A stretch of 64,000 nucleotides of DNA from Octopus sinensis (lineage: Eukaryota). The notes beneath the pieces are model-generated. The model saw only the letters and a program-made list of their open reading frames with translations. It was not told the origin of the DNA and did no database searches. This document shows, in pieces, positions 10,177 through 40,378 of the stretch (its first letter is position 1; each line of letters starts with the position of its first letter). The position numbers and the translations under genes were made by a program. The DNA lies in NCBI RefSeq assembly GCF_006345805.1, contig NC_042998.1, positions 196,106,001 to 196,170,000 on the forward strand, in the 5' to 3' direction.

Positions 10177-10508
10177 GGAGATGTACTTGCATAGCGAGTG
10201 ACCTGATCTGAGATCGTGTGCTGGTACGAAAACAATTGCAGCGTGGAAGGTGTTTGTAAGCCATATAAGAAACACACAAAAACTGTTAGACTTACTTCAA
10301 CATTTAAATTTAATTTGCCAAAATATTTTCGCCGCTTTGAAACCGAGACCTGTTCACTGAATTCTGCAGCATGGAATTTTCTCAGTGAACAGGTCGCAGT
10401 CTTAAAGCGACGAAAATATTTTGACAAATTAAATTTAAATGTTGAAGTGAATCTAACGGTTTTTGTGTGTTTTTAAATGGCTTATAAACACCTTCCACGC
10501 TGCAATTT
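10177..10508. mobile_element. Fold-back short element with two G3-C8 minimal hammerhead folds (family G)
   Basis: Arms about 10235-10360 and 10382-10507; tca-GTGAACA-g-gtcgc..gcgac-GAAA-ATAT-TT-tgacaaa at 10378-10428. Confidence 0.7.
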
Positions 10509-10650
10509 TATATATATATTGTATGTATGTTCTATTTCTTGATACTACCAATAGTGAAAAAAGATATCCGTTATATGACGGCCAACTCTGTAGTTATTAA
10601 AATTACAAGTCGATAGGCTGTGATTTGAGGGTAATTTTGCTCCTATTTCT

Positions 10651-10883
10651 TATTTCTTTATTGCCCACAAGGGGCTAAACATAGAAGGGACAAACAAGGA
10701 CAGACAAAGGGATTAAGTCGATTACATCAACCCCAGTGCTTAACTGGTACTTAATTTATCGACCTTGAAAGGATGAAAGGCAAAGTCGACCTCGGCAGAA
10801 TTTGAACTCAGAACGTAACTGCAGACGAAATACCGCTAAGCATTTCGCCCGGCATGCTAACGTTTCTGCCAGCTCGCCGCCTT
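10651..10883 (-). mobile_element. tRNA-derived SINE family M
   Basis: aggcggcgagctggcagaaacgttagc...gagttcaaattc...gcctttcatcctttc..ggtcgataaattaagtaccag...gccccttgtggg. Confidence 0.85.
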
Positions 10884-10924
10884 AATTTGCTCCTATTTCT
10901 ACCATGTTGTACGATCGTCTTGTG

Positions 10925-11123
10925 CAGTGGTTCCCAACCATTTTTCACCTATGGACACCTTTCTGTTTTAAAAAATTCTATTATATTTTTGTAATTAAAT
11001 ATCATTAAGAATTGGGTCAAAAATTGTTAAAATATTTTATGCATGGTTGACGTGTAACCAATTTATTGTACACCAATTTTAACAACAAAATCGTATTTGG
11101 ACCCCAGGTGGGGGGAACCGCTG
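10925..11123. mobile_element. hAT-type MITE; related copy at 27110-27369
   Basis: TIR cagtggttcccaacc / ggggggaaccgctg; AT-rich interior shared between copies; TSD not recognisable. Confidence 0.55.
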
Positions 11124-11734
11124 GTGCAAGTCTCCTTCCTTGACTCGGTGGAGCAACGATGTAGAAACTTTGTTCAGAACTCGATAGGTGACATGAAACT
11201 CGCTGTAAAGTTGATAGGTGACTTGGGTCCTTGATAAAGCTGACAGCTTTTCAGGTCGATACCTGACATTCGCCTATCTTTATTGAACGCCGCCGCATTG
11301 CACGCTGTGATGCAACGGAGGCCATGATCACAACGTCTGTGTTAAAGTTTACATAACATGGTAGACAAATTAGACACACCTATATACACATACCTGCTCG
11401 CACAAGCATATAATTATATCTGCATGCATTATGTACATGTGTGTATATACGTATGCGTACTTGTGTGTGTGTGTGTCTGTGTATGAAGCGAGTGGGATTC
11501 TCTCATTTGCCATTTAATTTGCGATAAAATAAAAATTAAAAAATGTATTTGGTAATAATTAGATTTGTATGAAACAGCGGGTGGGGAAGGAAGTCCACCC
11601 GACGTTATCAGTACCGTATCTTCTGATTACGTGTGTGTATATGTCAGTATGTGTGTTGTGTGTGTATTTATATGCCTTTCTCTGTGTGTGTTTGTGTGTG
11701 CCCTTTTATTATTATTACTATTATTTTCCCCCAC

Positions 11735-12005
11735 TTGTTCCAGTTATTAGATTGCGGCCTTTAAGAATTTTTAGTCGATGACTTTTGCCGAATCGCTAGG
11801 TTATGGGGATGTAAAGACACCATCACTGGTTGTCAAGCTGTAGTGGGGGAACAAACGAAGATACAAAGACACACACACACACACATACGTTTATATATAC
11901 GACGGGCTTCTTTCAGTTTCCGTCTACCAAATCCATTCACAAGGCTTTGGTCGGCCCGAGGGTATAGTAGTTGGACTGAACCCGGAACCATGTGGTCGGG
12001 AAGCA
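11735..12005 (-). mobile_element. SINE family B, degenerate
   Basis: Partial reverse-complement match. Confidence 0.7.
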
Positions 12006-12063
12006 AATCTATCAATAATGCCTGCCCCTTTAATGTGTGTTTGTGTGTGTGTGCATGCGTGTA

Positions 12064-12102
<39 letters not shown>

Positions 12103-12275
12103 CTGTTTGTATCTGTGTATGCAAACGAATGTTTCTATCGATTTTCTTTTTCTCTTTGTGGATCCTAGAAATATTGCTGACCTGCTAAATTGGATCATCA
12201 CACAGCTTTCTCTCTCTCTCTCTCTCTTCCTCTCTTCCTCCCTTTCTCTCTTCTCTCTTTTCACAAACACACACA

Positions 12276-12321
<46 letters not shown>

Positions 12322-12601
12322 AAACTCTGGTCTCTAAGTGTCTCAATAGGCGTCAACTTGTGAATATCGATCATCTCACATTAACAAAGTGGTTCTGTTG
12401 TTGTTATTCGTTTTGTTTAGATTATTAATCTATCAAAGTCGTACGACAGCTGCCCCTGAGCAGGAGGGGGAGGAGGAGGAGGGAGAGGAGGAGAGCATTC
12501 ATATATAGCAACATGTGTGTGTGTGTTTGTAAATATATCGTTAGCGATTTGTGACGGGATGTTGACAGCCTTTGGTTTAAAACAATAGTATTATTTAAAC
12601 T

Positions 12602-13080
12602 CTTCTATGTTTTTGAGACGAGGAATTATGTACATTATTTGCAATGGATGCTTAGATGCCCTCATCTTGTTTGTTGTTACCACAACATTTCGGCTGATGT
12701 ACTCTCCAGCCTTCATCAGGTGTTCTGATAGGATTTCAAACCCAACCCTTTATTAGACTAACGGGGTACTCTGTTCTCATTTCTAAGGTATTCTATTTAC
12801 TGATGTTATTTTTTGAAGATATTATGCCCATAGACATATAGTGTAGTAAATAAGAGCTACTAACACTCGGATTCTGGGTTCAAACCCAAGCAGGGAAGTG
12901 GAAAATAATATCTACATAAAAAATAGAATCTGCAAAAAAGAATACCTTAAGGATGAGAACAGGGTATCCCATTAGTGAAATAAAGGGTTGGGTTTGAAAT
13001 TCCACCAGGACACCTGATGAAGGCTGGAGAGTACATCAGACGAAATGTTGTGGTAATAACAAATAAGATGAGGGCATCCA
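12602..13080. mobile_element. Diverged family A unit: inverted body, degenerate tRNA head, body; two hammerheads
   Basis: About 12657-12790 is the reverse complement of about 12940-13080. CTGATGA...GAAA cores at 12679-12724 (-) and 13009-13054 (+). Confidence 0.72.
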
Positions 13081-13159
13081 TTGACTCCCTTTTGACTCAT
13101 TTTTTAATTTCTGCCAATTAAATCGAAAAAATATATTTATGTTTTGGAATTTATTTTTC

Positions 13160-13525
13160 TAGTAGTATGCTTCCAAACCACATGGTTCTGGGATCAATCC
13201 CACTGGGACAAGTGTTTTCTACCATAGCCTCTGGACCAAACTAAAGCCCTGTTAGTGGATTTGGTAGATGGAAACTGAAAGAAGCCTATATACGTGTGTG
13301 TATGTGTGTGTGTCTTTGTGTCTGTGTTTGTACCCCGCCCTTGTTTTACAACCAATGCTGGTTTGTTTACATCCTGTAACTTAATGTTTCAATGAAAGAA
13401 ATTGATAGATTAAGTACCAGACTTTAAAAAGAAAAAAGTTCTGGGGTTGATTCATTTGACTAAAATACTTCAAGGCAGTGCCCCAGCATGGCCACAGTTT
13501 AGTAACTGAAACAAATAAAAGATGA
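13160..13525 (+). mobile_element. SINE family B, diverged
   Basis: gtggatttggtagatggaaactgaaagaagcc plus tail. Confidence 0.7.
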
Positions 13526-13574
13526 AAAATGTGTGTGTGTGTGTATGTTGTATTAGCTGTATTATATCTATATT

Positions 13575-13803
13575 TTTTTTTTTACTACCCACAAGGGGCT
13601 AAACACAGAGAGTACAAACAAGGACAGACAGACAGATTAAAGTCGATTATATTGACCCCAGTGCGTAACTGGTACTTATTTAATCGACCCTGAAAGGATG
13701 AAAGGTAAAGTCGACCTCGGCGGAATTTGAACTCATAACGTAGCGGCAGACGAAATACAGCTACACATTTCGCCCGGCGTGCTAACGTTTCTGCCAGCTT
13801 GCC
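13575..13803 (-). mobile_element. SINE family M
   Basis: Match to 10651-10883. Confidence 0.85.
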
Positions 13804-14641
13804 TGTATTATATCATAAAATAAAATGCGTGTCTCATATCCAGTTACCTATTAGTAGTGCTAGATTTAGATGAAAAGAGGCCCTGGGCCTCTCTTCATTT
13901 ATGAGGCACCTCTCAAAAGATTTCACAATGTCAAAGGCATTATAACATCTTGGTCAGAGCCCCCTCCTTCTTCTCTGATTTTCCGGCCTGCTAACACTAC
14001 ATATAGCAATCCTACCTTGCCCACTGCACCTCTTCCTTTCTAATCAATAGCTTTAACAAACCTCACCCAACACGTCACCATTAGTCAAGGATTCGGTTTT
14101 AGCTGAGATCCTCTTCAAAGTTCTTCTCGGTGAATTATAGTTTGGAAACAAAAGCAAAACAGAAAATTGAGTTTCCCACGGTTTAAAAAGCAGGTTTCAG
14201 GGCGAACATTAACTCGTATTGTTTAGTACAAAGCTAAGTTAAGTAATCTCATTGTATTAACGACAGTATTTACAATTTAACTTATAAGAGGTGGGGGTTA
14301 AAAGGGGATGGGTAGAAGTAATACAAGATCTCCCACGGAGCTCATTTCTAGTTAACGGATGGCTTATGTAAACTAACGGCTAAGCATGGACTTAAGCGGT
14401 TTTGTTTAATTAGAGAGAAATCATTGTTGCTTCATTAATTTTCTTCTTCATTGGACTGATCTCGGGGGGGGGGGGTGTAACGACAATAAATCTCCTTTGC
14501 CCCCTTTTTCTTCAGAAATGGAAGGCTGAACGTCAGCGACACCAGACCCTGACTGTCCAGGTGGAGACGGGGCTGCAGGAGGATCATGTGTACTGCCACA
14601 CCCACTTTGACTAGTTTTATGTATATATATATATATACGTA

Positions 14642-14683
<42 letters not shown>

Positions 14684-14692
14684 ATATATATA

Positions 14693-14741
<49 letters not shown>

Positions 14742-14748
14742 CATATAC

Positions 14749-14827
<79 letters not shown>

Positions 14828-15447
14828 TGATAGATAGATAGATATATATACATACATATATATATATGTATATATACACACACATGTATATATGTATGTA
14901 TATATTATGCATACATATATGCACACACACACATATGTATATATCCATGTGTATACACTTATGTGTATATTCCTTTATTAGTTTCAATCAGTGAACCTTG
15001 CTAAGATTTCCTTTGAGAGATTAGTCAATCATATCGACCTGGGTGTGTGTGTGTGTGTGCGTGTGTGTTTGTGTGTGTGTGTGCGTGTGTGTGTGCGTGT
15101 GTGTGTGTTTTATAGGTGATGGAACAAAGCCATGGTTTACCCATTAATTTGTATACCATATTGTCTGTATCTCCTTTATTTAAGACAGTAAAGTACATCA
15201 CACACACACACACACACACACGTACACCTAACTCTGTATACACACATTTTCATTTTATGTATTCATTGGTTCCGGCTCTCTGCCACAATGATTTATTTTT
15301 CAGAAAACAAAACAAACCTAAGATTAAATTCCCCACAGTTGATACCCAGATTTCAGCAATCTGGTGAGATCAAGTTTGCCCTCCACCCTCCCAAAGTCAG
15401 CTGAGAGTGGTTGGCTGGTTTCGTTACTTGAGTAAAGGACAGGAGGA

Positions 15448-15800
15448 GGCGCAATGGCCCAGTGGTTAGGGCAGCAGACTCGCGGTCGTAGGATCGCGCT
15501 TTCGATTCCCAGACCGGGCGTTGTGAGTGTTTATTGAGCGAAAACACCTAAAGCTCCACGAGGCTCCGGCAGGGGATGGTGGTGATCCCTGTTGTACTCT
15601 TTCACCACAACTTTCTCTCGCTCTTACTTCCTGTTTATGTTCTACCTGTATTTCAAAGGGCCGGCCTTGTCACTCTCTGTGTCATGCTGAATATCCCCGA
15701 GAACTACGTTAAGGGTACGCGTGTCTGTGGAGTGCTCAGCCACTTACACGTTAATTTCACGAGCAGGCTGTTCCGTTGATCATAACCGACGGAGTGCTTC
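15448..15800 (+). mobile_element. tRNA-derived SINE family D
   Basis: Head ggcgcaatggcccagtggttagggcagcagactcgcggtcgtaggatcgcgctttcgattccc; body shared with 21658-22385. Confidence 0.8.
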
Positions 15801-16032
15801 CATCCATGATTCTTGGCCTCTCTCTTTGGCTGCTCTTCACATTCTGGGCTCAAATTCCATTTTGGTGCCAATAGCTGGAGCTATTCACTTGACTGTGGGT
15901 CCACTTTTGACCAACCTGCAATCAACCAGCTTAGACAGGTTGTTGATGAGGCAGGAACAGAGTCACTGAGCAGGCATAAGATGGATTAGTTTGAGGTAGT
16001 TGGGTTTAATGGCTGAATGGGGTTGTCATGAA

Positions 16033-16375
16033 TCATCATCATCATCGTTTAACGTCCGCTTTCCATGCTAGCATGGGTTGGACGATTTGACTGAGGACTG
16101 GCAAACCAGATGGCTGCGCCAGGCTCCAATCTTGTTCTGGCAGAGTTTCTACAGCTGGATGCTCTTCCTACGCCAACCACTCCAAGTGTGTAGTGGGTGC
16201 TTTTAAAGTGCCACCAGCAGGAGGGCCAGTCCGGCAGTACTGGAAACGGCCACACTAGAAAATGGTGTTTTTTACGTGCCACCTTCATGGGAGTCAGTCC
16301 AGCAGCACTGGCAATGACCTCGCTCGAATGTTTTGTTCACGTGCCACCAGAACAAGTGCCAGTGAGGCGATGCTG
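16033..16375 (-). mobile_element. Family C retroposon
   Basis: (CAT)n then gtttaacgtccgctttccatgctagcatgggttggacg. Confidence 0.75.
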
Positions 16376-16656
16376 ACATACAAGGAAATCATACAAGGAA
16401 ATATTGGTTATGTAGTGACTGTAAACATATTTGATGTAGGGAGCATCGAAATGATTTATAAAAATAATTGTAAAGTCGTGGAAGAGGGAAGTAACTCCAG
16501 TCATGTTCAAGTCTTATTAAACCTCCTCAACAAGGCACAAATTTTCCTCTGTACTTGCTGATGTTGCGATTTGATAATCACCAAGAAGACACACAAGAGT
16601 AGGTGTGAGAATATTCAACCTTTAGTTTACAGTGTTAATCTCAAGTGGTGGTGGCC

Positions 16657-16690
<34 letters not shown>

Positions 16691-16723
16691 CAGCAGCAGC
16701 AGCAGCAGCAGAAGTAGTAATAT

Positions 16724-16759
<36 letters not shown>

Positions 16760-16815
16760 AGTAGTAGTAGCAGCAGAAGTAGTAGTAGTAGTAGTGTAGT
16801 AGTAGTAGTAGTAGT

Positions 16816-16846
<31 letters not shown>

Positions 16847-16873
16847 TAGTAGTAGTAGTAGTAGTAGTAGTAA

Positions 16874-16908
<35 letters not shown>
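16657..16908. repeat. (TAG/CAG)n microsatellite
   Basis: Direct reading. Confidence 0.95.
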
Positions 16909-17169
16909 ATTAGGAAGTTTGAGTCAGTCAACCTGTCCACTCCCACAAATACGTATTATTTCGTGAAATATGCACTAAATGACACACACACACACAACAC
17001 ACAACACGTACACACACACACATACACACACACACATACACACACACACACACAACACACACAACACATACACACACATAACACATTGCTATCTTCATCT
17101 CTCCCCCCCTCACCCCTCACCCCACCCCCCATAGATAGTATCCTTATCTCACTGATGTTACAAACATTG

Positions 17170-17525
17170 TTACTCTTTTACTTGTTTCAGTCGTTTGACT
17201 GCGGCCATGCTGGAGCACTGCCCTTTAGTCAGACAAATCGACCCCCACCCCTCCCCAGAACTCATTCTTTGTTAAACCTGGTACTTATTCCGTCAGTCTC
17301 TTTTGACGAACCTCTGAGTTACGCAGCAATGTAAACAAACCAACACCGGTTGTCAAGCGATAGTGGGGGGGGACAAACACAGACACACAAACACATATTT
17401 TGTGTGCATATATACAACGGGCTTCTTTCAGTTTCCGCCTACCAAATCCACTGACAAGGCTTTGGTCGACCTGAGGCTATAGTAGAAGACACTTGCCCAA
17501 GGTGCCACGCAGCGGGACTGAACCA
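17170..17525 (-). mobile_element. SINE family B
   Basis: Reverse-complement match lacking part of the head. Confidence 0.75.
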
Positions 17526-19207
17526 TGAGGAGCCGTGCCAAAGCAGGCATTGAAACTCCCTGCAGTTCTTTGGTTCATTGGATCCTGTTGAACAGTGCAA
17601 CCCATGCCAGCATGGAAGATGGGCATTAAATGCTGCTGCTGATGATGATGATGATGATGAGTATGAAGTTGGTAGTGGTGGTGGGGGGGTCGGGGTCAGA
17701 GAGAAGTAGTAAGGGAAAGAGAAGATAAGCCACAGAGGATTTCCTTGTTCTGTTCGACAAAACTAATTTCCAGTCAGATAATAACCATAATCTCCAGGAG
17801 TTAATCCGCCCATATTTCCTGGCGAGATTAACTCCAACAAAGCTAGCTGCAGAATATTAATCTCGATCATGAAACTCGAATTTCTTACATTCTCTCACAA
17901 TGTCTTCTTATGTGAGAATGACATGGGATGTCTCCTCTCAATCTTCTCTCTTTCAGTGATGGCTCGTGTATACCCCACTGTAGAACTGCAGTGTCCCCTA
18001 TTTCCACTCGATATTATCGATGACATTCAATATAATGAGTCCTTTTTCCTTTAATTCTTTCTTTATACTCATACGTTATATAATCCTTAAGCTTAATGCC
18101 AGTAGCTGTCCCCTAGTTTATGAAAAAAATACAAAAATCCTTGTATAGAACTGTGCACTTCACAGTTCCAGTGACGCGGTGTTTAGCTGTTGTGCGCATG
18201 CTCAAAAGTCCGAGATAGGAAGCTTCATGCTAGGGAGAAAGAGCACTGTCGTTCACTCAGTGCTGGGGGAAAGATAGTGTTCCTTTTTGACTCCATGTAT
18301 GTTGTGCTTAAAAACGTGTTTATATTCTTGAATGTGATAAAGTGTAGAATTAAATTATTATCCTGCTTCCAGCTTCAGTGTTACTGCCAGGATTATTTTG
18401 TGATTTAGGGGGGATTTTTGAAAACCAAGGTGGAAGTAGCACCCCCACTAATTTTATCTACGAGACACCACTGCCTCTGGCATACATCTATTTGTTATGA
18501 GAAAATACATCACAGATGTTAACTTCTCAGAGATGCCATCTGCATGGAAAACTATAGTTAAACTAGTGTTAACAGTGTTAATGAAGTCACTAGAAAAAGA
18601 AAGACCTGTCTAATTATTAGTAATTATGTAATGAGGAAAAGACAGCAAAAAGATTTTGATTAAGTGTGTTATATATCATCATCATCATCATCATCATCAT
18701 TATCAAGTGTTTTAAATCCAGGTTTTGTCCCCGTTAACAGGGGTGGCCAGATCTACCTCGATGCCATAGCAACCAAGGTAGGCAGGTGAAGCCCACCCTA
18801 ACCTTTGGGTTGGTTGGTACCCATTCTCCTTTGCTACCATGAGGCCTTTTTGGAACTGGATTGATTTTCTACGGGGAGCATGCCCTTGCTTACCCCCCCA
18901 ACCTCAGTTTCTAGACACGAGTGGTCCCAAGACCAAGGCCTCAACCACGATTTTTAAGAAATGCGGTGGACAACTATCTCAGGAAGGCGGGGAACGCTAC
19001 TCCCTGAGACCCCTTTCAGACCCCCACTACCTATATAGTAGATTAATATTCTATGCTATTGTTTGGGGAAAGAAGCAGGGTATGTCTTCTCTGAGGAGGG
19101 ATCAACAAACTGTGAAACAGTTCTTCTGAGGCCTCTTTCACTCTCTCTCTCTCTCTCTCTCTGTCTGTCTGTCTGTCTCTCTCTCTCTGTCTCTCTCTCT
19201 CTCTCTT

Positions 19208-19238
<31 letters not shown>

Positions 19239-19761
19239 ATCTATCTCTTCTGCATATTAATAGTATAAAAATAATGTGTTTGGTTAACCAATGCCTTAAT
19301 CATTTTCTATGAGTGTGTTGTATTTTACACACACATACGCACACACACACACACACACACAATACCAGACATTCCTAATAAAGAATGACACAGTAGCAAT
19401 CAATGACACACTTTGGCTGTTCCATAACCTTGACTTCTCCCTCACAACAGGAATCTCGTTAAAGAATTTTTTTTTAATTTTAATTCAAAGGTAATAAAAA
19501 AAGGAAAAGTGTTTTTAACGATCAATAAATTCTGTTTTATGGGGAGTAAAGTTCCTGCAGAACTAAATAAGCAAACCCAAAGCGCAAATGGATGCATACA
19601 GGGGAAGATGGGGGGCCCAGAGATGATGATGATGATTCTAACAACTTGCCACATGGAGTTTGTCTAAAAGTGGTTTCAAATTTTTGACACTATTCCGGGG
19701 GTGGGGTGGGGGAGTAAGACAATTACATCAACCCCCAGTACTCAACCGGTACTTATTTTTA

Positions 19762-19995
19762 AGGCGGCGAGCTGGCAGAAACGTTAGCACGCCGGGCGAA
19801 ATGCTTAGCGGTATTTCGTCTGCGTTACGTTGTGAGTTCGAATTCCGCCGATCTCGACTTTGCCTTTCATCCTTTCGGGGTCGATAAATTAAGTACCAGT
19901 TACGCACTGGGGTCGATGTAATCGACTTAATCCGTTTGTCTGTCCTTGTTTGTCCTCTCTGTGTTTAGCCCCTTGTGGGTAATATAAGAAATAGG
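19762..19995 (+). mobile_element. SINE family M
   Basis: Full-length match. Confidence 0.85.
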
Positions 19996-20145
19996 TACTT
20001 ATTTTTATTGATCCCAAAAGGACAAATGCAGAAAAGTCAAAGTCAACCCTGGTGGCATCTGGACTCAGAACATATAAAAATGGGACAAAATGCTGCATAG
20101 AAATTTGGTCGACGTGGCAACGATTTTTCCAGCTTTCCACCTTGA

Positions 20146-20391
20146 CCCATTCGTGCCGAAGTTTTTCTAGTGAGTGAAATTGCTTGCAAATTCACAGAAA
20201 CTATTAATTTGACCTAAATAATAAATGAAAAAAAATTTCATTGAAATGCGTTTGATACAGACTTCATACGTGTTAAGAACCTGTTTCATTCTTTGATACA
20301 GATCATACACAAATCACAATTTGTATCAAGTATTTGTTTTACACCCTTACAAATTAAGGGTCAGTTTAAACGGACGATCAGCATGAATGGG
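20146..20391. mobile_element. piggyBac-type MITE
   Basis: TIR cccattcgtgccga / tcagcatgaatggg; flanks ttga and ttaa. Confidence 0.55.
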
Positions 20392-20416
20392 TTAAGTTTG
20401 TTTAATATTGCTAAAC

Positions 20417-22803: not shown

Positions 22804-22834
<31 letters not shown>

Positions 22835-23204: not shown

Positions 23205-23580
23205 ACTCTTTTACTCTTTTACTTGTTTCAGTCATTTGACTGCAGCCATGCTGGAGCACCGCCTTTAGTCGAGCAACTCGAACCCGGGACTTATTCTTTT
23301 GTAAGCCTAGTACTTATTCTATCGGTTTCTTTTGCCGAACCGCTAAGTGACGGGGACGTAAACACACCAGACATACAAACACACACACATACACATACAT
23401 ATATATACATATATACGACAGGCTTCTTTCAGTTTCCGTCTACCAAATCCACTCACAAGGCATTGATCGGCCTGGGGCTATAGTAGAAGACACTTGCCCA
23501 AGGTGCCACGCAGTGGGACTGAACCCGGAACCATGTGGCTGGTTAGCAACCTACTTACCACACAGCCACTCCTGCGCCTA
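23205..23580 (-). mobile_element. SINE family B
   Basis: Reverse-complement match. Confidence 0.85.
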
Positions 23581-23584
23581 TATA

Positions 23585-23940
23585 TATATTAGAAGAAATG
23601 AGGTACTTAGAAGTACGGATGGTTTATATTTACAGATATTTATTTGTATATTACATTTTTTATATATATATCATATCACTTAGATCATTAGCGCTTTCTC
23701 CCATTCTAGTGGGGTTTCAAATCAAAATAAGTTCCTGTGTGGGGAATTTTAATCATTTTATAGAGTTTCGTAGTGGTGGGGAGGAATATAAGACAGTACT
23801 GTCTTATATAAGTGATATGATATATATATAAAAAATGTAATATACAAATAAATATCTGTAAATATAAACCATCCGTACTTCTAAGTACCTCATTTCTTCT
23901 AATATATAAAACCTGTACATCATCTCCAAACCTTCCAATA
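23585..23940. mobile_element. Fold-back short element in (TA)n with degenerate hammerhead-like fold (family U)
   Basis: About 23585-23682 is inverted at about 23808-23908, with a ~30-nt extension on the right arm only; homologous to 39477-39772. Confidence 0.65.
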
Positions 23941-27765: not shown

Positions 27766-27798
<33 letters not shown>

Positions 27799-27939
27799 GT
27801 TTGTATACACACATGCATACATATATAAATTTAAATAATAAGGGTGAAAAATTGAATGTTAATTTGATTAATATCAATTGAAAACCAGTGGCCTAGCATA
27901 ATGAAAAATCTGAAGATTCAGAAAAAATATATTACATAC

Positions 27940-28441: not shown

Positions 28442-28498
<57 letters not shown>

Positions 28499-28967: not shown

Positions 28968-29035
<68 letters not shown>

Positions 29036-29950: not shown

Positions 29951-29988
<38 letters not shown>

Positions 29989-30011
29989 CCTTTCATCCTT
30001 TCTGGGTCTCT

Positions 30012-31336
30012 TTCACTCTTTTACTTGTTTCGGTCATTTGACTGCGGCCATGCTAGAGCACCGCCATTAGTCGAGCAAATCGACCCCAGGACTTATTCTT
30101 TGTAAGCCTAGTACTTATTCTATGGGTCTCTTTTGCCGAACCGCTAAGTAACGGGGACGTAAACACACCAGCATCGGTTGTCAAGCAATGCAAGGGGGAC
30201 AAACACAGACACACAAACACATACACATACATATATATACATATATATACGACAGGCTTCTTTCAGTTTCCGTCTACCAAATCCACTCACAAGGCATTGG
30301 TCGGCCCGAGGCTATAGTAGAAGACACTTGCCCAAGATGCCACGCAGTGGGACTGAACCCGGAACCATGTGGTTGGTTAGCAAGCTACTTACCACACAGC
30401 CACTCCTGCGCCTATATATATATATATTTGTCTTTCATCCTTTCTGGGTCTCTTTTACTCTTTTACTTGTTTCAGTCATTTGACTGCGGCCATGCTGGAG
30501 CACTGCCATTAGTCGAGCAAATCGACCCCAGGACTTATTCTTTGTAAGCCTAGTACTTATTCTATGGGTCTCTTTTGCCGAACCACTAGGTTACGGGGTC
30601 GTAAACACACCAGCATCGGTTCTCAAATGATGTGGGGGGGGGGCAAACACACACATATATACATACATATATACGACGGGCTTCTTTCAGTTTCCGTCTG
30701 CCAAACTCACTCGGTCGGCCCGAGGCTCGGTATTTTTTTTACGAAATTTTTGGGGAGGGAGCCAGTCGATTAGATTGACTTCAGTACGCAACTGGTACTT
30801 AATTTATCGACCCCGAATGGATGAAATGCAAAGTCGACCTCGGTGGAATTTGAACTCAGAACGTAAAGACAGACCGCTAAGGAATTCGTCCGGTGTGCTA
30901 ACGTTTCTGCCAGCTCGCTGCCTTTCTGAGTCGGTAATATTAGTACCAGTTGAGCACTAACCCCGTCCCCTAAAAATTTTCAGGCCTGGTTCCTATACTC
31001 TTTTACTTGTTTCAGTCATTTGACTGCGGCCATGCTGGGGCACCGCTTTTTAGTCGAGCACATCGACCCCAGGACTTATTCTTTGTAAGCCTAGTACTTA
31101 TTCTATCGGTCTCTTTTGCCGAGCCGCTAAGTTACGGGGACGTAAACACACCAGCATCGGTTGTCAAGCGATGTTGGGTGGGGGGGACAAACACAGACAT
31201 ACAAGCATATATACATATATACGACGAGCTTCTTTCGGTTTCCGTCTACCAAATCCACTCCCAAGGCTTTGGTTGGCCCGTGGCTATAGTAGAAGACACT
31301 TGCCCAAGGTGCCACGCAGTGGGGCTGAACCCGGAA
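30012..31336 (-). mobile_element. Cluster of three family B SINEs (30012-30413, 30451-30725, 30997-31336) and a family M copy
   Basis: Repeated ctcttttacttgtttc(a/g)gtcatttgactgcggccatgct starts. Confidence 0.8.
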
Positions 31337-31937
31337 CTGCTCCTATAGTAGAAAGAATTATTAAAGCGGTGAACTGATTGAATCGTTGGCGTGTCGGATT
31401 AAATGCTTAGCGACATTTCTTCCGGCTCATAACATTTAAATGCCCTCGAGGTCGACTTTGCCTGTCATCCGTTCAGGATCGATGTAATCGATTTTTCCAC
31501 TTCCCTAAAATTGCAGGCCTTGTGCCAAAATTTGAAACAATTATTTACATTGTTATTGTATTTCTAATGATTTCGGGTAATTTTAAAACCATTTAATTAG
31601 TATTTTATTTTATTTCCTTTTATTTAAATAAAATCTGAAAATATAAACACAAATAGGCGCAGGGGTGGCTGTGTGGTAAGTAGCTTGCTTACCAACCACA
31701 TGGTTCCGGGTTCAGTCCCACTGCATGGCACCTTGGGCAAGTGTCTTCTGCTATAGCCCCGGGCCGACCAATGCCTTGTGAGTGGATTTGGTAGACGGAA
31801 ACTGAAAGAAGCCTGTCGTATATATGTATATATATATATATATATATATAAGAAAATAGTAAGTGTGAAAAGACGACAGAAGGCTTAAATGTTAAAAAAT
31901 ATATATATTTGTGTCAAAATGTCTGGAGAATATTGGA

Positions 31938-31981
<44 letters not shown>

Positions 31982-32019
31982 CCTCCTTTCCTTAAAATGA
32001 CATAATTTTAAAATTTTTA

Positions 32020-32058
32020 AAGAAATTACCGGTTTCGCGTGTAGCTTTTCAATTTCTT
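32020..32058 (-). ncRNA. Mirror copy of the PLE minimal hammerhead
   Basis: Reverse complement aagaaa-TTGAAAA-gctacacgc-GAAACCGGTA-atttctt, one T shorter than the right-arm copy. Confidence 0.65.
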
Positions 32059-32195
32059 GTGACGTTATGTTTATATTGCATGGACTTATCGTTGTTTTTA
32101 TTTCCAGGAGATTTCTAAATAAGGGGAGGTAGTGAGTGATTTTTTCCGGTGTAGGGGAGATATCGCTTAAAAATTTTTTTTTTCCATTTCCTTGT

Positions 32196-34179
32196 TAATT
32201 TCTCTGTGTCAGTATGTTCGGATGGTTGAGTCTGGGTTTGTACTTTTCAATGAAGAATGTTTCCTTGTTCAGTCTCATTTGTGTTGATGATCCGAAAGCA
32301 CATTGGTAAAATGGGAAGATTAAAAATTGTGGCAGTAGTTGCTTTGCGCATTTCTCAATGTGCTCACTAAAAGTATCATTCTATATTCTGGGAATGCAAT
32401 CTGTTGTCGATGCAGTGTGCATCTGCGCCTGAGTGATAGTCCCGTGGAACCCACGTAGTCTTGGTGGCAGCCCGAGCATTAATAACACATAAATTATGTT
32501 TTCAGAGGCACAAGTAAAGTTAGATTTGATCTTAAATTTCTGTCCCTCTTTAAAGAAGAATTCTGATCCTTCCAATAGGTTAGGACATGTTGCACAGTTC
32601 GATCTACCACATTTTTTTACTTTTGCATCCGTAATTTTAGAAGACAATTTTGCCTTTGTGAGTATCTTTTTAAGTGATTTAGGCTTGTTTGTAGCTTTTA
32701 ATGATTTGGTGTATGTTTAGAATTTCCTTTAATTTTGGGTTTTTATGAAGTATTGGTAAATTCTGGGTGATGATGGTGAAGGCTTCTTTGTTTCTGGGGT
32801 TGTATGAATATGTAAGGTAGTATTTTCGGGGAAGGTGTGTTGTTGTGTTGAACTTTTCTTAAAGTTTCTATGTTGATTTCTGTTGCACGTCTGATCCCAT
32901 CCTCTATGAGTTGAGCTGGGTAATGTCTGTCAATTAGGGTGTTTTTGAGTTCTTGCAGTCTAAAGTTCCTGGTATTTTTTTCTGACACTATTGTGCATAT
33001 CCTTCTTGCAAGGTTGAAGGGGATGTTTGTTTTAGTGTGTCTTGGGTGGCATGAATTAAAAAGAAGGTATTGTTTGGCGTCTGTGGCTTTGTAAAAAATG
33101 TCTGTTCTATTTAAGGTTAATTTTTTTAATTAGTATATCCAAGAACGGGAGCTCCTTTTGGTTGTATTCCATTGTGAACTGTATATTTGGGTTTATGCTG
33201 TTCAATAGGTTTTTAAATTTTAGGAGTTTATCTATTTTTCATTCCAGAGAATGAAACAATCGTCTAGGAATCGTTTCCAATTCTCTTTTATGTATTGAGA
33301 GAGGGAGTTTCCAAAGATTGATAGAGATTCCTGGTAAATGATTATTTCCATGTATCCCATTGTTAAGTTCGCAATGACTGGTGCTGCCCTTGTACCATAG
33401 CAATTCCGGATTTTTGACGGTAAAATGTATTGTCAAACATGAAGTGGTTATTGTGTAGGATGAATTCAATTGATTTAGTAATGAATTCCTTACTGATCCT
33501 TTTTGGTATTTCTTCCGGAAATTGGTCTAACCAGAATTGTATTGCCTCCAGTCCGTAATTATGAGGTATACTGGTATACAAGTTGACTACATCAAATGAA
33601 ACCAGGATTGTTTCTTCCTTGGTTTTTTTTGGAAGGTGGTTTAACATATCTAAGTCATCTCTGATATGGCTATCGATATGTTTAAGGAAGGGTTTCAAGA
33701 GGATGTCCATAAGTAGACTTAGTCTGTGTGTTTCACAGGTTGGGCCAGCTACAATGGGTCGTAGTTTTAGGTCCCCCGGATTAGTGTGTGTATGTATGTC
33801 TTTGGTGATTTTTAATGGTTTCATTTATAATTTGACTTTTATGAATTTTTGGCAGACCATAGAAAAGGCTAGGTTTGCATTTAAAGTTTGTTAGGAAATC
33901 AATCTCTTTGGTTGTCAGTTCCTTTTCATGGGTTTTAATTAGTGAAGATAGAGTTTTCATTATTTTTTGTGGGGTGTAGTTGGTAATTTTTTCATAATGT
34001 AGGTCTTCATCAAGCAAGGAAATTACAAGATTTCTGTAGTATGATGTATCCATTATTACAACTGCATTTCCCTTGTCCGCTTCCTTAATGGTTATATCTT
34101 CATCATTTTGGAGTTCTATCAGTTCTTTCCATTGTGTATTGTTAAAATTTGGGTTAGCTTTCTGTTCGGCTTTCTGTTC
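32196..34179 (-). pseudogene. PLE RT + GIY-YIG, longer 5'-truncated copy, frameshifted
   Basis: ORF fragments with IKEADKGNAVVIMD, FYGLPKIHK, LRPIVAG, SFDVVNLYTSIP and CGRSNCATC; mirror image of the right arm. Confidence 0.92.
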
Positions 34180-35574
34180 TTGATGTAGTCAACTTGTATA
34201 CCAGTATACCTCATAATTACGGACTGGAGGCAATACAATTCTGGTTAGACCAATTTCCGGAAGAAATACCAAAAAGGATCAGTAAGGAATTCATTACTAA
34301 ATCAATTGAATTCATCCTACACAAACCACTTCATGTTTGACAATACATTTTACCGTCAAAATCGGAATTGCTATGGGTACAAGGGCAGCACCAGTCATTG
34401 CGAACTTAACAATGGGAACATGGAAATAATCATTTACCAGGAATCTCTATCAATCTTGGAAACTCCCTCTCTCAATACATAAAGAGAATTGGAAACGATT
34501 CCTAGACGATTGTTTCATTCTCTGGAATAAAACATAGATAAACTCCTAAAATTTAAAAACCTATTGAACAGCATAAACCCAAATATACAGTTCACAATGG
34601 AATACAACCAAAAGGAGCTCCCGTTCTTGGATATACTAATTAAAAAAATTAACCTTAAAATAGAAACAGACATTTTTTACAAAGCCACAGACGCCAAACA
34701 ATACCTTCTTTTTAATTCATGCCACCCAAGACACACTAAAACAAACATCCCCTTCAACCTTGCAAGAAGGATATGCGCAATAGTGTCAGAACAAAATACC
34801 AGGAACTTTAGACTGCAAGAACTCAAAAACACCCTAATTGACAGACATTACCCAGCTCAACTCATAGAGGATGGGATCAGACGTGCAACAGAAATCAACA
34901 TAGAAACTTTAAGAAAAGTTCCACACACAACACACCTTCCCCGAAAATACTACCTACATATCTACATACAACCCCAGAAACAAAGAAGCCTTCACCATCA
35001 TCACCCAGAATTACCAATACTTCATAAAAACCCAAAATTAAAGGAAATTCTAAACATACACCAAATCATTAAAAGCTACAAACAGCCTAAATCACTTAAA
35101 AAGATACTCACAAAGGCAAAATTGTCTTCTAAAATTACGGATGCAAAAGTAAAAAAATGTGGTAGATCGAACTGTGCAACATGTCCTAACCTATTGGAAG
35201 GATCAGAATTCTTCTTTAAAGAGGGACAGAAATTTAAGATCAAATCTAACTTTACTTGTGCCTCTGAAAACATAATTTATGTTATTAAATGCTCGGGCTG
35301 CCACCAAGACTACGTGGGTTCCACGGGACTATCACTCAGGCGCAGATGCACACTGCATCGACAACAGATTGCATTCCCAGAATATAGAATGATACCTTTT
35401 AGTGAGCACATTGAGAAATGCGCAAAGCAACTACTGCCACAATTTTTAATCTTCCCATTTTACCAATGTGCTTTCGGATCATCAACACAAATGAGACTGA
35501 ACAAGGAAACATTCTTCATTGAAAAGTACAAACCCAGACTCAACCATCCGAACATACTGACACAGAGAAATTAA
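34180..35574 (+). pseudogene. PLE reverse transcriptase (C-terminal part) plus GIY-YIG endonuclease, 5'-truncated and frameshifted
   Basis: DVVNLYTSIPH, SGIAMGTRAAP, RFLDD (34499-34510), LPFLDILI, TDIFYKATD, SCHPRHTK, linker CGRSNCATC, NIIYVIKCSGC..YVGST GIY-YIG motif; stop at 35574. Confidence 0.92.
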
Positions 35575-35709
35575 CAAGGAAATGGAAAAAAAATTTTTAA
35601 GCGATTATCTCCCCTACACCGGAAAAAATCACTCACTACCTCCCCTTATTTAGAAATCTCCTGGAAATAAAAACAACGATAAGTCCATGCAATATAAACA
35701 TAACGTCAC

Positions 35710-35749
35710 AAGAAATTTGAAAAGCTACACGCGAAACCGGTAATTTCTT
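35710..35749 (+). ncRNA. Minimal type I hammerhead ribozyme in the PLE 3' region (U3-A8 core variant)
   Basis: aagaaat-TTGAAAA-gc tacac gc-GAAA-CCGG-TA-atttctt: 7-bp stem I, 2-bp stem II, palindromic CCGG in place of stem III. Confidence 0.75.
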
Positions 35750-35947
35750 TAAAAATTTTAAAATTATGTCATTTTAAGGAAAGGAGAAAAAAAAAAAAAA
35801 AAAAAATTTTTCCAATATTCTCCAGACATTTTGACACAAATATATATTTTTTAACATTTAAGCCTTCTGTCGTCTTTTCACACTTTACTATTTTCTTATA
35901 TATTCACCCACGTGCTTTACCAAAAACTTTCTTATCTATATATATAT

Positions 35948-36001
<54 letters not shown>

Positions 36002-36252
36002 GTGTGTGTATGTGTGTGTATATGTTTGTGTGTCTGTGTTTGTCCCTCTAGCATTGCTTGACAACCGATGCTGGTGTGTTTACGTCCCCGTCACTTAGCG
36101 GTTCGGCAAAAGAGACCGATAGAATAAGTACTGGGCTTACAAAGAATAAGTCCCGGGATCGATTTGCTCCAGCATGGCCGCAGGCAAATGACTGAAACAA
36201 GTAAAAGAGTAAACAACATCGCCGAACGTTAATTTATAGAAATTATTTTTAA

Positions 36253-36287
36253 TGAGAGAAGGAAAGAGAGAGAGAGAAAGATAGACA

Positions 36288-36329
<42 letters not shown>

Positions 36330-36455
36330 GACAGAAAGACGGAGCAAGTGAACGAGACAAAGAGAGAGTGAGCAAGACGGAGAGAGAGAGAAAAAGAACG
36401 AGAGAAAGAGAGAGAGAGAGAGAAAAAGAACGAGAGAAAGAGAGAGAGAGAGATA
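36253..36455. repeat. (GA)n-rich tract
   Basis: Direct reading. Confidence 0.9.
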
Positions 36456-37012
36456 GACTGGCAGGCTGACAGGCAGTCAGAAAGAGTGAAGCAGAGAGAG
36501 AGGGGGAGTCGGACTTGATTTATTCTCTCTTGAGACAGTTTCCCAAAGGAACTCTGAAATAATTAAAGAAAATTTCAAGACATCGTTTCGTTAATTCTTT
36601 CTTATTTCCTCGTTTTCCATTTGAAGGAGGAAATCTTTGTCACGTGATTAGTGTGACCTTTGGGAAAGAGAGAGAGGCACGGAAGGATTTCTAGATCTTA
36701 AACCTACGACGGGGGGGAATAGACGGTGGTGGTGGTGATGATTGATGTTGACGTGGTGACGAGATGGTGGTGGTGGTGTTGATGATGTTACCCATGGTGC
36801 TGGTAGTGGTGGTTGTGATGGTGGTAGTGTAGTGGTTGCGGTGGTAGACGGGTGGTAGACGGGTGGTATTAGAAATACTATCGACAGTTTGTGATAGAGT
36901 TTCATTGGTTCAGTTTTTATCAAAGAGTCTTCGAGATGTCGTCAAATTATTTCATGAATTCTGAAAACAGGAAGACAATTATTGGACCATTTCCTTCTCT
37001 TGCACTCCCTCA

Positions 37013-37436
37013 CAGGGGCCGAATTAAGACTCATAGCGGCCCTAAGCACTTAAAAGACTTTTGGTGCCCCACATATTAATGTAATTCAAAAATGTAAACA
37101 ATAATAAACCATAAAATACATTTTATTTTTCAAAATGAAACAACACTAATAATGAGATGGAAAATGATGTTTATTTTTCCTTACTTTCACGTTATTTATA
37201 TTTGAAAAATTGGCTCCTACATTTTTTAATTGCAAAGTGTTTGATCAGATCCTCATTATGCCACCATAAATTCTACAAAATTATATTTCCGACCATACAA
37301 ACCACTTCGAATATTATTTTAGTAAGTTTAAAGTGATTTCTTTTGTGCCGTAAACCATTTCCCATTTCTGTGGTGCCCTCCTTCCCTCGATGTCCTAAGC
37401 ACGAGTTCATTTGGTTTAATGGTTAACCCAGCGTTG
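37013..37436. mobile_element. Possible hAT-type MITE
   Basis: caggggccgaattaa ... ttaacccagcgttg degenerate TIR; internal ggtgccc and cctaagcac repeats. Confidence 0.35.
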
Positions 37437-38099
37437 ATCGCTCGCAGTCCACAAAAAATGGCTACTGTTGGAATTCTGACAAAATTAACCACAGAATTAC
37501 TGTCTTCACAATTACTAATAATGATTTCTAATTCCATCCATGGGAAGGTCGTGGAGTTAGAGTCCTCAGGCACTTCCTCCATAGGTTCCTATCAAAAGCA
37601 ACCGTCATTACACTTTACGGGTGGATTCCCATGCGTGACCAACCATGACCATGGGTATTATCCAATCATTTCGTTTTTGGTCTTCCTCTGGGTCTGGCTC
37701 AGTTTGAAGAATTCGTCCTTTGATTCTTTCCTAAGACATTCTAATCACATGTCCATGGTACTGGCGTTGTGACGCCCAGATGCAGAGAAATAGCGGTTCG
37801 ACCCGAAGAGACTCCCTCATCTCTGAGTTAAGTAACATATCGAGTAACACTATTCCAGAGACCCTTAGAAGGAACCCCCATTTTGCTGCATGTATTAGTG
37901 GTGGGGATTGGGAACTGGAATATCTATAATCTTACTATAGAAATATTAAAATTTCTAAGTCTCTCTAAAGGAGACTACGGCAGCGGTACTGGAAATTAAC
38001 AGTTATCGCCAAGCTAATATGGCAGTCCATAAATATACGACTAAAGCTGCCGTTGATTAGCTCCAAGAGGCTATTGCCTCTGGCTAGCTATATGACATA

Positions 38100-38331
38100 A
38101 GGCGGCGAGCTGGCAGAAACGTTAGCACGCCGGGCGAAATGCTTTGCGGTATTTCGTCTGCCGCTACGTTCTGGGTTCAAATTCCGCCGAGGTCGACTTT
38201 GCCTTTCATCCTTTCGGGGTCGATTAAATGAGTACCAGTTACGCACTGGGGTCGATGTAAACTACTTACTCCGTTTGTCTGTCCTTGCTTGTCCCTTCTG
38301 TGTGTAGCCCCTTGTGGGTAGTAAAGAAATA
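38100..38331 (+). mobile_element. SINE family M
   Basis: Full-length match. Confidence 0.85.
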
Positions 38332-39153
38332 TATATGACACACGAACCTGTGTCCATTATAACCTTCGAACAGGGGAGGTCAGCCGCTTCTCCTTGCTGG
38401 TCTGGCAGCTGCAGACATGTTTCAGGGTATTTGCCCTTTATCAATGCAGAGTATTTTATTTTATCGAACTGACGAAAAAGCTTCTTGCAAAATCTATTAG
38501 AAATAGTAGCAGCCAGTTCGATTAATTGTTGATTCGAGTAGCTGTTATTTCGATCAATTGTTTCTATTTTCGTTTTGCTGTTTTCGATACATTGGCGCCC
38601 AAAGTGTCATTGGTATACGGCAAGTTGAAGGGGACGGAGTGGCCAAGGTGGTAGAGCGCCGGACTCAAATGTGTTTGTGTAGTTCACAGCTTACGTATAT
38701 TCTGACGTCATATTGTACCGTAGTTGATCTTTTTTTATCCTCTTGAGGATAAAATTATATACTGGGATGATTCATCGTCACAATACCTTTACCCGTTTTT
38801 ATATCTGTGGCCTTGTTCCGGCGTGAGAAACTTCTATAAATAAATTACACTTTAATAGAAGTTGGTTAGTGTTTGGAGTGAGGGTAACATGTTTTTATAG
38901 ATCAGCATGAAAGAAATGTGTGTGGAAGGGGAAGGTTGGTGAAATTGCACAAATGGAACGAGGGAAACGAGAGACAGACAATTGAACAAACGTGAGAGGT
39001 TCATTACATCGAGTGGACGAGAATTGAAAAGGCGGTGGACGAAATGTAAAAACAGTTTTGTACAATGAAATTGGACGTTGAAGAACGGAAGGCTCAGACT
39101 GATGTTTAGGGTGAATCCATTATCTAAATAGAATAAGCCAGAAACGAGCAGAG

Positions 39154-39220
<67 letters not shown>

Positions 39221-39235
39221 TTATATATATATATA

Positions 39236-39445
39236 CCGGAGTAAACACATAAATGTGAAACAAGGTGGAAAAAAGAGTACTCAAATACCAGTGGTAGAGT
39301 AATATACTTTATTTAAAGCAGCAGAAAATTCAACAAAACCTGTTACTCTGAGTTTCTCGTTGCCGCAAAAACTGTCCGATGACGGCAACGGAAACTCAGA
39401 GTAACAGGTTTTGTTGAATTTTCTGCTGCTTTAAATAAAGTATAT
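39236..39445. mobile_element. Fold-back short element in (TA)n (family P); related copies at 24605-24733 and near 40748-40792
   Basis: Inverted arms tttatttaaagcagcagaaaattcaacaaaacctgttactctgagtttc and its complement; near-identical start at 24605. Confidence 0.65.
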
Positions 39446-39476
39446 ATATATTATATATATATATATAATATACACA

Positions 39477-39772
39477 ACAGATATTTATTTGTATATTACG
39501 TGTTTTTTATACACATATAACTTATATCATATATCATATATTAGCGCTTTCGTCCATTCTGGTGGATTTTTCAAATGGAGCTTAGTCCATTTGAAAAATC
39601 CACCAGAATGGACGAAAGCGCTATTATATATGTATATGATATAAGTTATATGATGTATAAAAAACACGTAATATACAAATAAATATCTGTAAATATAAAA
39701 TCATCCGAATTTCTGAGTACCTCATTTCTTCTAATATAAAATACCTGTACATCATCTCCCAACTTTCTAATA
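39477..39772. mobile_element. Family U fold-back element
   Basis: Palindrome centred near 39582; TTGAAAA-a-tcca ccagaa tgga-c-GAAA-GCGC-TA at 39591-39623. Confidence 0.65.
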
Positions 39773-39774
39773 TA

Positions 39775-40161
39775 TCTTTATATATAAAAGTGAGGTTGTG
39801 TGCTGTCTGTCTCCTACGATTTAGATTCGTAACTACTCCCACAATTTGCGGTGCAGTTTAACCAAAACGGGTATCTCATAGTCGCGATTCATATCAAGCC
39901 CTTCTGGGTATTAGCGCGCGTCTACGATGAGTCTTACGATTTAAAAAAAATTTACCATCAATTTTTCCCATTTTTAATGCATTTTGGCATATATAAGGAA
40001 GTAACTCTAAAAATTTATTATAAATCTCAGAACTAAACAGCTACAGTAACACCCCCCTTGTGGTTAGCCATATTGAGATGGCTATTATACTTTACATCTC
40101 TCTAAACTGCTTATATAGTTATTTCCCTTACAAACCCGAGCACGCCGGGCGATACTGCTAG
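39775..40161 (+). mobile_element. Non-autonomous Helitron
   Basis: 5' A|TCTTTATATATAAA, subterminal GC hairpin cccgagcacgccggg, 3' CTAG|T, no TSD. Confidence 0.85.
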
Positions 40162-40179
40162 TATAATATATATAAAACC

Positions 40180-40378
40180 ACGAAATTTTGTCAGTGAACA
40201 GGTCGCGTTCCCAAAGCGACGAAAATATTTTGGCAAACTAAATTTAATGTTGAAGTGAATCTAACGGGGTTTTTTTTTTGTGTTTCTTAAATGGCTTATA
40301 AACACTCCACGCTGCAATTGTTTTTGTTTAGGCACACAATCTCAGATCAAGTCATTTACTATTCAAATACATCTCCGT
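40180..40378 (+). mobile_element. Family G single arm with minimal hammerhead fold, inside (TA)n
   Basis: tttgtca-GTGAACA-g-gtcgc..gcgac-GAAA-ATAT-TT-tggcaaa at 40187-40237; the remainder matches 10177-10508. Confidence 0.7.

Follow-up and report, generated by a model that had tools for sequence, protein, structure and literature searches.

Minimal hammerhead motifs with all four Watson-Crick 3-8 pairs in Penelope-like elements and short repeats of the Octopus sinensis genome

Minimal hammerhead ribozymes located in the pseudo-long terminal repeats (pLTRs) of metazoan Penelope-like elements (PLEs) are already known (Cervera and de la Pena 2014, PMC4209133), as is a natural U3-A8 pair at core positions 3 and 8, which occurs in the Cercyon elements of Schistosoma (about 1,300 matches) next to one U3.G8 example among the cores of Fig. 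S3 (PMC4209133). Natural covariation from C3-G8 to U3-A8, together with a stem II of two pairs, has also been reported (Perreault et al. 2011, PMC3088659). The Poseidon PLE of the anole carries a pLTR hammerhead that cuts only with protein, and in which an engineered C3G/G8C exchange partly restores cleavage in vitro (Frangieh et al. 2024, PMC11167929); engineered G3-C8 cores are found in other studies as well (PMC8495972; PMC3884650). The role of PLE hammerheads is debated, given their poor cutting in vitro, insertion in vitro that does not need them and the suggestion that they are passengers (PMC4209133; PMC11167929; PMC8557442), and the published proposals for cleavage are tandem transcript processing or circle formation (PMC4209133). 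Here we analyzed a 64,000-nucleotide (nt) stretch of the Octopus sinensis genome (assembly GCF_006345805.1, contig NC_042998.1, positions 196106001-196170000 of a 2.7-Gb animal genome rich in microsatellites; hereafter the window), in which an initial annotation had described hammerhead cores with three different 3-8 pairs. Our analysis indicates that these motifs have minimal type I hammerhead anatomy, lie in PLE end repeats and in short copies likely derived from them, and quite probably have their 3-8 pairing kept by selection, with slow cutting predicted.

The window was scanned with a descriptor that allowed any letters at positions 3 and 8 and was written after the initial description, with 100 local dinucleotide shuffles as control. 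Matches with a Watson-Crick 3-8 pair and at least six of seven stem I pairs numbered 3, against a shuffled mean of 0.03 and a maximum of 1, which bears out the motif excess that had been expected, although without the stem I filter the excess was not significant (7 matches against 3.1). The descriptor recovered the U3-A8 motif of a PLE (core at 35717) and two G3-C8 motifs of a short repeat, family G (cores at 10385 and 40194), each of which has six or seven of the 7 stem I pairs, and also picked up 32052(-), 10357(-) and 38444(-). The PLE motif consists of UUGAAAA, a 2-bp stem II (GC/GC), GAAA, a CCGG palindrome, UA and a 7-bp stem I; the family G motifs consist of GUGAACA, an extra G, a 5-bp stem II, GAAA, AUAU and UU. 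These motifs, and the C3-G8 motifs of a further repeat, family A, have the minimal type I anatomy that the initial annotation had assigned to them. The 7-bp stem I claimed for the PLE and family G holds for the PLE and for 40194 (7/7), whereas 10385 pairs at 6/7. An Rfam scan of the window gave 138 matches at E up to 5, with hammerhead families absent from them, and a strict scan for single copies in evenly spaced stretches totalling 1.0 Mb of the genome, made without a shuffle control, gave only 18 matches.

Beyond the window, a genome pattern that excluded U3 returned 2,057 matches against 543 for the reversed control, and A3-U8 cores were present in 53 of the first 100 matches listed, all on contig C1 and counted by eye. 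Fetched A3-U8 copies form two families that occur elsewhere than in the window, W (subfamilies W1 and W2; loci L370-L384 and L405) and X (L385-L389 and L409), with a 2-3-bp stem II and a CCGG palindrome. Of the 18 W copies, 13 have a stem I of 4 bp or more, with compensated variants present, and 5 of the 6 X copies have one of 5 bp or more. Ten upstream stretches were fetched, and five of them reach the end of a PLE endonuclease gene. These five belong to two X copies, one W1 copy, a sister of the window PLE and a G3-C8 relative of X; in them the motif lies 200-300 nt 3' of the gene, and tblastn upstream of the X and W1 motifs gave 56-65% identity to PLE endonuclease. Among related PLEs with the CCGG palindrome in common, the pLTR position is taken by U3-A8, A3-U8 or G3-C8. 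Because the abundant A3-U8 motifs add to the C-G, U-A and G-C forms, this genome has all four Watson-Crick forms of the 3-8 pair. Since several families sit behind homologous PLE endonuclease genes, they are, to judge from this homology, not independent inventions, and the description of their carriers as unrelated families was overstated: the carriers are PLE pLTRs or short pLTR-type copies. An endonuclease tree built from 12 short peptides gave no order of the U-A and A-U lineages. A repeated CUGAAAA...GGCC row was rejected as a hammerhead, having 0-1 stem I pairs at 6/6 loci.

Family X harbors a switch between two pairs. A pattern for this family with positions 3, 7 and 8 left free had 130 matches and none in its reversed control. 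Among the 100 of these 130 matches that were listed, positions 3-8 were A-U in 68, G-C in 26, G.U in 3 and C.C, A.G and G.G in 1 each (counted by eye), so that 94 carried a Watson-Crick pair. An A-U copy and a G-C copy, both behind a PLE endonuclease end, are 84.5% identical over 362 nt. The commonest form of one G-C subfamily (12 listed rows) matches an A-U subfamily at all of the 14 free positions in the matched stretch other than 3 and 8, a coincidence of roughly 1 in 91 by hand count. The G3-C8 sister subfamilies of X (L398/L413, 26 listed rows) are distinct from family G. Because family G has an extra G and an AU palindrome, while the G-C branch of X has no extra base and a CCGG palindrome, G3-C8 probably arose at least twice.

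The proposed structure of the CCGG-palindrome group was analyzed in an alignment of 26 hand-chosen natural copies. Here, 84.3% of cells pair against 65.3% after shuffling, the covariation score is 0.498 against 0.169 (none of 500 shuffles was as high, and slid controls reached at most 0.173), and compensated pairs are found in 7/7 stem I columns. The invariant core letters (U4, G5, A6, A9, G12, A13, A14, A15.1, U16.1 and H17) are present in 26/26 of these copies. A position 200-300 nt 3' of PLE endonuclease genes is shown for the U3-A8, A3-U8 and one G3-C8 lineage, and the motifs change in a compensated manner at 3-8 and in stems I and II.

Family G is a non-coding unit of ~200 nt that starts ~23 nt 5' of the core, often with an inverted truncated copy upstream, with two alternative 3' ends ~55 nt apart and with frequent (TA)n flanks. 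An inverted 5'-truncated upstream copy and an optional 3' tail are described features of PLE insertions (PMC8557442), and family G shows these marks. Its density (12 matches per Mb, counting those of 50 nt or longer) extrapolates to copies on the order of ten thousand or more. We compared 29 copies of family G with 26 copies of an older subfamily, G2. The two sets differ in their majority letter at 32 of the 134 columns downstream (24%) and at 0 of 33 core and inner-stem positions, for which the chance at the downstream rate is about 1 in 10,000 (hand estimate). Within the motif, changes fall on N7 and on loop II; stem II differs by one extra pair, stem I by a compensated swap from U-A to G-C and by the loss of its outermost pair, and the palindrome by a 2-nt indel that preserves it (AU or AUAU, resolved by eye). 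A TATA-like stretch ~30 nt 5' of the common 5' end in some G2 copies suggests that this end is a transcription start; only ~80 nt of upstream sequence are common to the G2 copies. PLE fragments at L005 and L134 were considered as a parent of family G and proved to be separate insertions. A G3-C8 pattern with 2-nt S-S loops showed no enrichment (98 matches against 152 in the control) and led to G2 only; its most repeated row, tried as a hammerhead, lies in an apparent reverse transcriptase (RT) coding repeat and lacks stem I in 8/8 fetched copies.

At the family level, an unbiased, evenly spaced sample (100 stretches of 10 kb plus the window, 1.06 Mb) contained 7 recurrent candidate families, of which 4 keep the core in their majority, with C-G in 11/14, C-G in 10/11, G-C in 10/11 and U-A in 4/4 copies at 3-8; the other 3 fail elsewhere in the core. 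A larger pooled set (1.81 Mb, 315 sequences, duplicates dropped), in which families G, PLE and H are enriched by searches aimed at them, contained 30 recurrent candidate families. Fourteen of these keep the core, and in seven of them the palindrome is kept as well and stem I reaches 4 bp or more. All seven are Watson-Crick at 3-8 (7/7), and mismatches in family consensus sequences, which would have spoken against the initial proposal, are thus absent among these intact families. In this pooled set 3-8 is G-C in 59/71 copies of family G (stem I of 6-7 bp in G/G2), U-A in 43/43 copies of the PLE motif (7 bp), C-G in 12/16 of family A (5 bp) and U-A in 24/26 of family H (6 bp in the family majority). 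The majorities of A, G/G2, PLE, H and U carry U4 G5 A6, A9, G12 A13 A14 A15.1, U16.1 and H17. The pair that closes helix II, 10.1-11.1, is G-C in PLE, G, A, X and W and A-U in H. PLE, G, H, A and X have Watson-Crick 3-8 pairs, and the literal C3-G8 of the published descriptor is found only in family A. Helix I falls within the 3-7 bp typical of the class in A, G/G2, PLE, H, W and X, and stem/loop III takes the palindromic forms CG, CCGG, GCGC, AUAU/AU and CAUG. Minimum-energy dimer folding gave palindrome pairing in 1 of 5 motifs tried, that of the PLE. Further recurrent hammerhead families were seen with C3-G8 (L133, L144, L189 and L404) and with U3-A8 (L100, L134, L116, L205 and L207); close to L100 and L134 is a PLE gene whose 3' region is long and resembles a microsatellite.

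Taken as a whole, the self-cutting fold is likely kept by selection, as far as comparison of copies can tell. The initial annotation had read the covariation as selection for catalysis. Maintenance of the 3-8 pair by selection stands, and on a stronger basis than the one it gave, namely the compensated switch within X and the unchanged G/G2 core; that selection acted on catalysis rather than on the fold is an inference of that annotation, no cleavage having been seen. We propose that the hammerheads in the pLTR would cut RNA slowly, as dimers joined via the palindromic stem III, and that the element's protein probably assists this predicted cutting, by analogy with the anole PLE. Selection on a few active master elements would keep 3-8 paired, whatever the letters, while dispersed copies decay. 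The letters could vary as long as they pair because residue 8 reportedly acts through its 2'-OH and is held in place by pairing with residue 3. Changes between A-U and G-C could proceed by two transitions through a G.U wobble, and between C-G and U-A by two transitions through U.G, both plausible low-cost paths, whereas a change from U-A to A-U would need two transversions, without such a path. The copies of families G, A and H may be pLTR-only cDNA copies made from uncut or religated RNA. That one genome holds selected, cleavage-competent PLE hammerheads with four 3-8 pairs, that its G3-C8 and A3-U8 forms are the first natural ones in high copy number, and that a compensated switch separates sister subfamilies, is a possibility that we advance tentatively.

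Several observations weigh against selection for a cutting ribozyme and bear on how the motifs are best explained. Of 29 family G copies chosen by their 3' part, 20 match the core and 18 of these are G-C (three indel copies were read by eye). Because none of the 29 begins at the predicted cut site and 27 extend across it, the RNA copied into these insertions is, on the reading of their ends, uncut or rejoined. For the anole PLE, too, copied RNA is reported as uncut or rejoined, no reads end at the cut site, and hammerhead mutants do not impair PLE insertion in vitro, which did not need cleavage (PMC11167929); published minimal hammerheads cut poorly (PMC4209133). Family U spread to many copies despite an unpaired 10.1-11.1, and keeps the core but not the junction pairs. 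These points would be expected if the fold were kept as a structure, with a role in PLE protein binding or in the placement of signals for transcription, splicing or reverse transcription, and with cutting absent or irrelevant. We consider this unlikely, as a pure binding scaffold need not retain all the catalytic-core letters, yet the 26 aligned copies all retain G12, A13, A14 and A15.1-U16.1 and none has a G at 17, and the 3-8 pair is described as holding residue 8 in the active site (PMC8495972).

The 3-8 states might also be founder effects of a few drifting masters, in which shared ancestry mimics covariation with no selection on the pair. The X copies of one subfamily share ancestry, so that the 68/26 split may represent one or two events and a Fisher value for these copies overstates the case, which rests instead on the subfamilies that differ at 3 and 8 alone, and independent events are few in general; in the 26-copy alignment, pairs changed on both sides and further pair types were in no excess over shuffles (82/500 and 237/500). 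Some mismatch states recur. Family U is U3.G8, a state with a published natural precedent, in 8/82 copies; two insertions have G3.A8 and four of the loci fetched (L400-L403) have C3.A8, both found with the U3-excluding pattern, whose frequencies of mismatch states are not representative. The family counts are also sensitive to choice, since three of the seven intact families (G, PLE and H) are those enriched by their own searches, and a stem I cut-off of 3 bp gives 8/9 Watson-Crick families. Drift of this kind is nevertheless quite improbable in our view: it would have to produce X subfamilies whose commonest forms differ at 3 and 8 alone, four Watson-Crick states in several lineages with no high-copy mismatch family with intact stems turning up, and a G/G2 core that stays invariant across 24% downstream divergence. 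As for family G itself, no PLE gene in register with G, G2 or H was found within the 1.5-kb flanks of the loci examined, and the termini of G match each other in inverted orientation over a short stretch (AGAUG with CAUCU), both of which would suit a non-PLE short inverted-repeat element, or another repeat, with a hammerhead likeness due to chance. The inverted 5'-truncated copies, two 3' ends and (TA)n flanks of PLE type, the conservation of the G/G2 fold with compensation and the separate G3-C8 motif tied to a PLE gene make such an origin highly improbable. A genome-wide junction search found only 2 head-to-tail junctions within 30 nt, both with a (TA)n spacer, and on this ground circles with a short fixed junction were rejected as a model for family G.

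Table 1. Positions of hammerhead motifs and associated elements in the window.
Feature	Positions	Strand	Details
Family A hammerhead, C3-G8, palindrome decayed	6537..6582	-	core 6577
Family A hammerhead, C3-G8, palindrome decayed	9416..9461	-	core 9456
Element of the 10357(-) copy	10173-10360	-	inverted partner of the 10385 copy
Family G hammerhead, G3-C8, decayed	10314..10364	-	core 10357; stem I 3/7, stem II 3 bp
Element of the 10385 copy	10365-10507	+	
Family G hammerhead, G3-C8	10378..10428	+	core GUGAACA at 10385; predicted cut after 10421
Family A hammerhead, C3-G8, palindrome decayed	12679..12724	-	core 12719
Family A hammerhead, C3-G8, palindrome decayed	13009..13054	+	core 13014
Family U2, sister of U	23579..23799	-	stem II pair U-A replaced by C-G
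Second PLE hammerhead copy, inverted arm	32020..32059	-	one U missing, stem I out of register
Reverse transcriptase fragment, inverted arm of same PLE insertion	33363..33824	-	RVT_1 E 0.03
PLE open reading frame, C-terminal part	34531..35574	+	late RT region, CX4CX2C linker, GIY-YIG-type endonuclease; 5'-truncated
U3-A8 minimal hammerhead, PLE 3' pLTR	35710..35749	+	core 35717; predicted cut after 35742
Family H hammerhead, U3-A8 (UUGAUAA)	38409..38449	-	core 38444; 4-bp stem II, CAUG palindrome, GUC site
Family U inverted partner	39477..39576	-	core 39574
Family U, deviant U3-A8 motif	39589..39781	+	core 39591, GCGC palindrome
Element of the 40194 copy	40179-40379	+	
Family G hammerhead, G3-C8	40187..40237	+	core 40194; 7-bp stem I; predicted cut after 40230
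Family A copy, decayed core U3.G8 (UUGAUGA)	41403..41448	-	core 41443

The window PLE is a 5'-truncated inverted element at ~31850-35900 (Table 1). Its C-terminal frame of 347 amino acids has a weak GIY-YIG match (E 0.018), and the nearest atlas clusters combine HTH_animal and GIY-YIG (score 0.96-0.97); a PDB sequence search with the RT fragment returned 0 matches. Its 3' end shares 97-100% identity with each of the forty best matches in the genome, so that this PLE family is, by that measure, young. The arrangement of endonuclease-bearing (EN+) PLEs, with an RT followed by a C-terminal GIY-YIG domain and a hammerhead in the downstream pLTR, was found in the window element, X, W1 and U2. In a sister subfamily of the window PLE (L396/L418 and L397/L419), G3.A8 is present at two insertions with the 7-bp stem I intact, and at L419 the inverted partner of the G3.A8 copy carries U3-A8.

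The four C3-G8 copies of family A in the window have the core CUGA(U/A)GA and an extra A. The CG palindrome proposed for this family is UG/CA in 5/5 window copies and CG in most copies of the unbiased 1.06-Mb sample, and thus holds for copies outside the window. Family H was absent from the initial annotation. A direct pair of H copies 361 nt apart at L199, the only one among 20 loci (L191-L210), indicates that this family may be retrozyme-like.

Family U had been presented as a regular U3-A8 hammerhead and is instead a deviant hammerhead-like motif: 10.1-11.1 is unpaired (A.C or C.C across genome copies) and the proximal helix I has 2 bp in the family majority, so that it fails a strict descriptor with a paired 10.1-11.1 and a helix I of at least 3 bp. 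Its sister U2 has C.A at 10.1-11.1 and a 2-bp helix I, and a PLE endonuclease gene lies upstream at 3 of 19 other U2 loci (37-44% identity). Because the stem II change in U2 is compensated, the U/U2 fold is, on this comparison, kept though deviant. Both families (window 23579-23799(-); L213-L235) show a splice-acceptor-like pyrimidine run ending in CAG ~14 nt 5' of the core, and a distal helix I pairing across an internal loop is possible. The Penelope hammerhead of Drosophila virilis has a 2-bp helix I adjoining an intron end (PMC4209133). A long inverted repeat at window 39320-39440 adjoins family U and has no match to the families described here. Separately, an abundant interspersed repeat has a 184-185-bp unit in tandem arrays at window 43171-43993, 46539-46887 and 54350-54714, in which window scans found no hammerhead.

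Telling a selected ribozyme from a passenger calls for evidence such as compensated change at a tertiary core pair, and the natural A-U and G-C sister subfamilies are ready-made test constructs. If selected, cleavage-competent hammerheads with four 3-8 pairs are indeed present, PLE hammerheads work in vivo, and PLE clades reported without them may carry non-CUGANGA cores. As published descriptors fix the core as cuganga (PMC8557442), searches for CUGANGA miss the variants described here, as the initial annotation had pointed out, and ribozyme counts in animal genomes, as well as claims of hammerhead-free PLE clades, may need revisiting with all four pairs.

It should be noted that G3-C8 and A3-U8 appear to be unreported as natural high-copy forms. 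Lunse et al. reportedly surveyed about 150,000 PLE-linked variants. In the literature searched, with that survey and most subscription papers outside its scope, hammerheads with a natural G3-C8 or A3-U8 pair were not found. The core-variation section of Perreault et al. 2011 (PMC3088659) names neither of these as a natural pair, and both are present here. Short, non-coding repeats with type I hammerheads are also known as non-LTR (long terminal repeat) retrozymes, which are thought to be moved by PLEs (PMC7229834; bioRxiv 10.64898/2026.07.22.740005); they form tandem arrays, whereas family G does not occur as head-to-tail tandem units.

The anole PLE has two internal reverse-transcription starts that result in an optional tail (PMC11167929), and the two 3' ends of family G suggest the same. 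G3-C8 was engineered in that element and is natural here; A3-U8 is abundant here and is not mentioned in the available part of the anole account (PMC11167929). The closest described motifs are the minimal hammerheads of PMC4209133, which share with ours the type I layout without a real helix III, the palindromic 15.2-16.2 and loop 3, a frequent extra base after A9, UU/UA/UC sites, the place behind the RT-EN gene and the many solo and inverted copies. Stem II is mostly 4-8 bp in that set and often only 2 bp in the octopus motifs. G3-C8 and A3-U8 are found in 0 of the 56 aligned cores of its Fig. S3, while all four pairs are found in one genome here, and, unlike that set, the octopus genome contains a compensated A-U/G-C switch inside a single family (PMC4209133).

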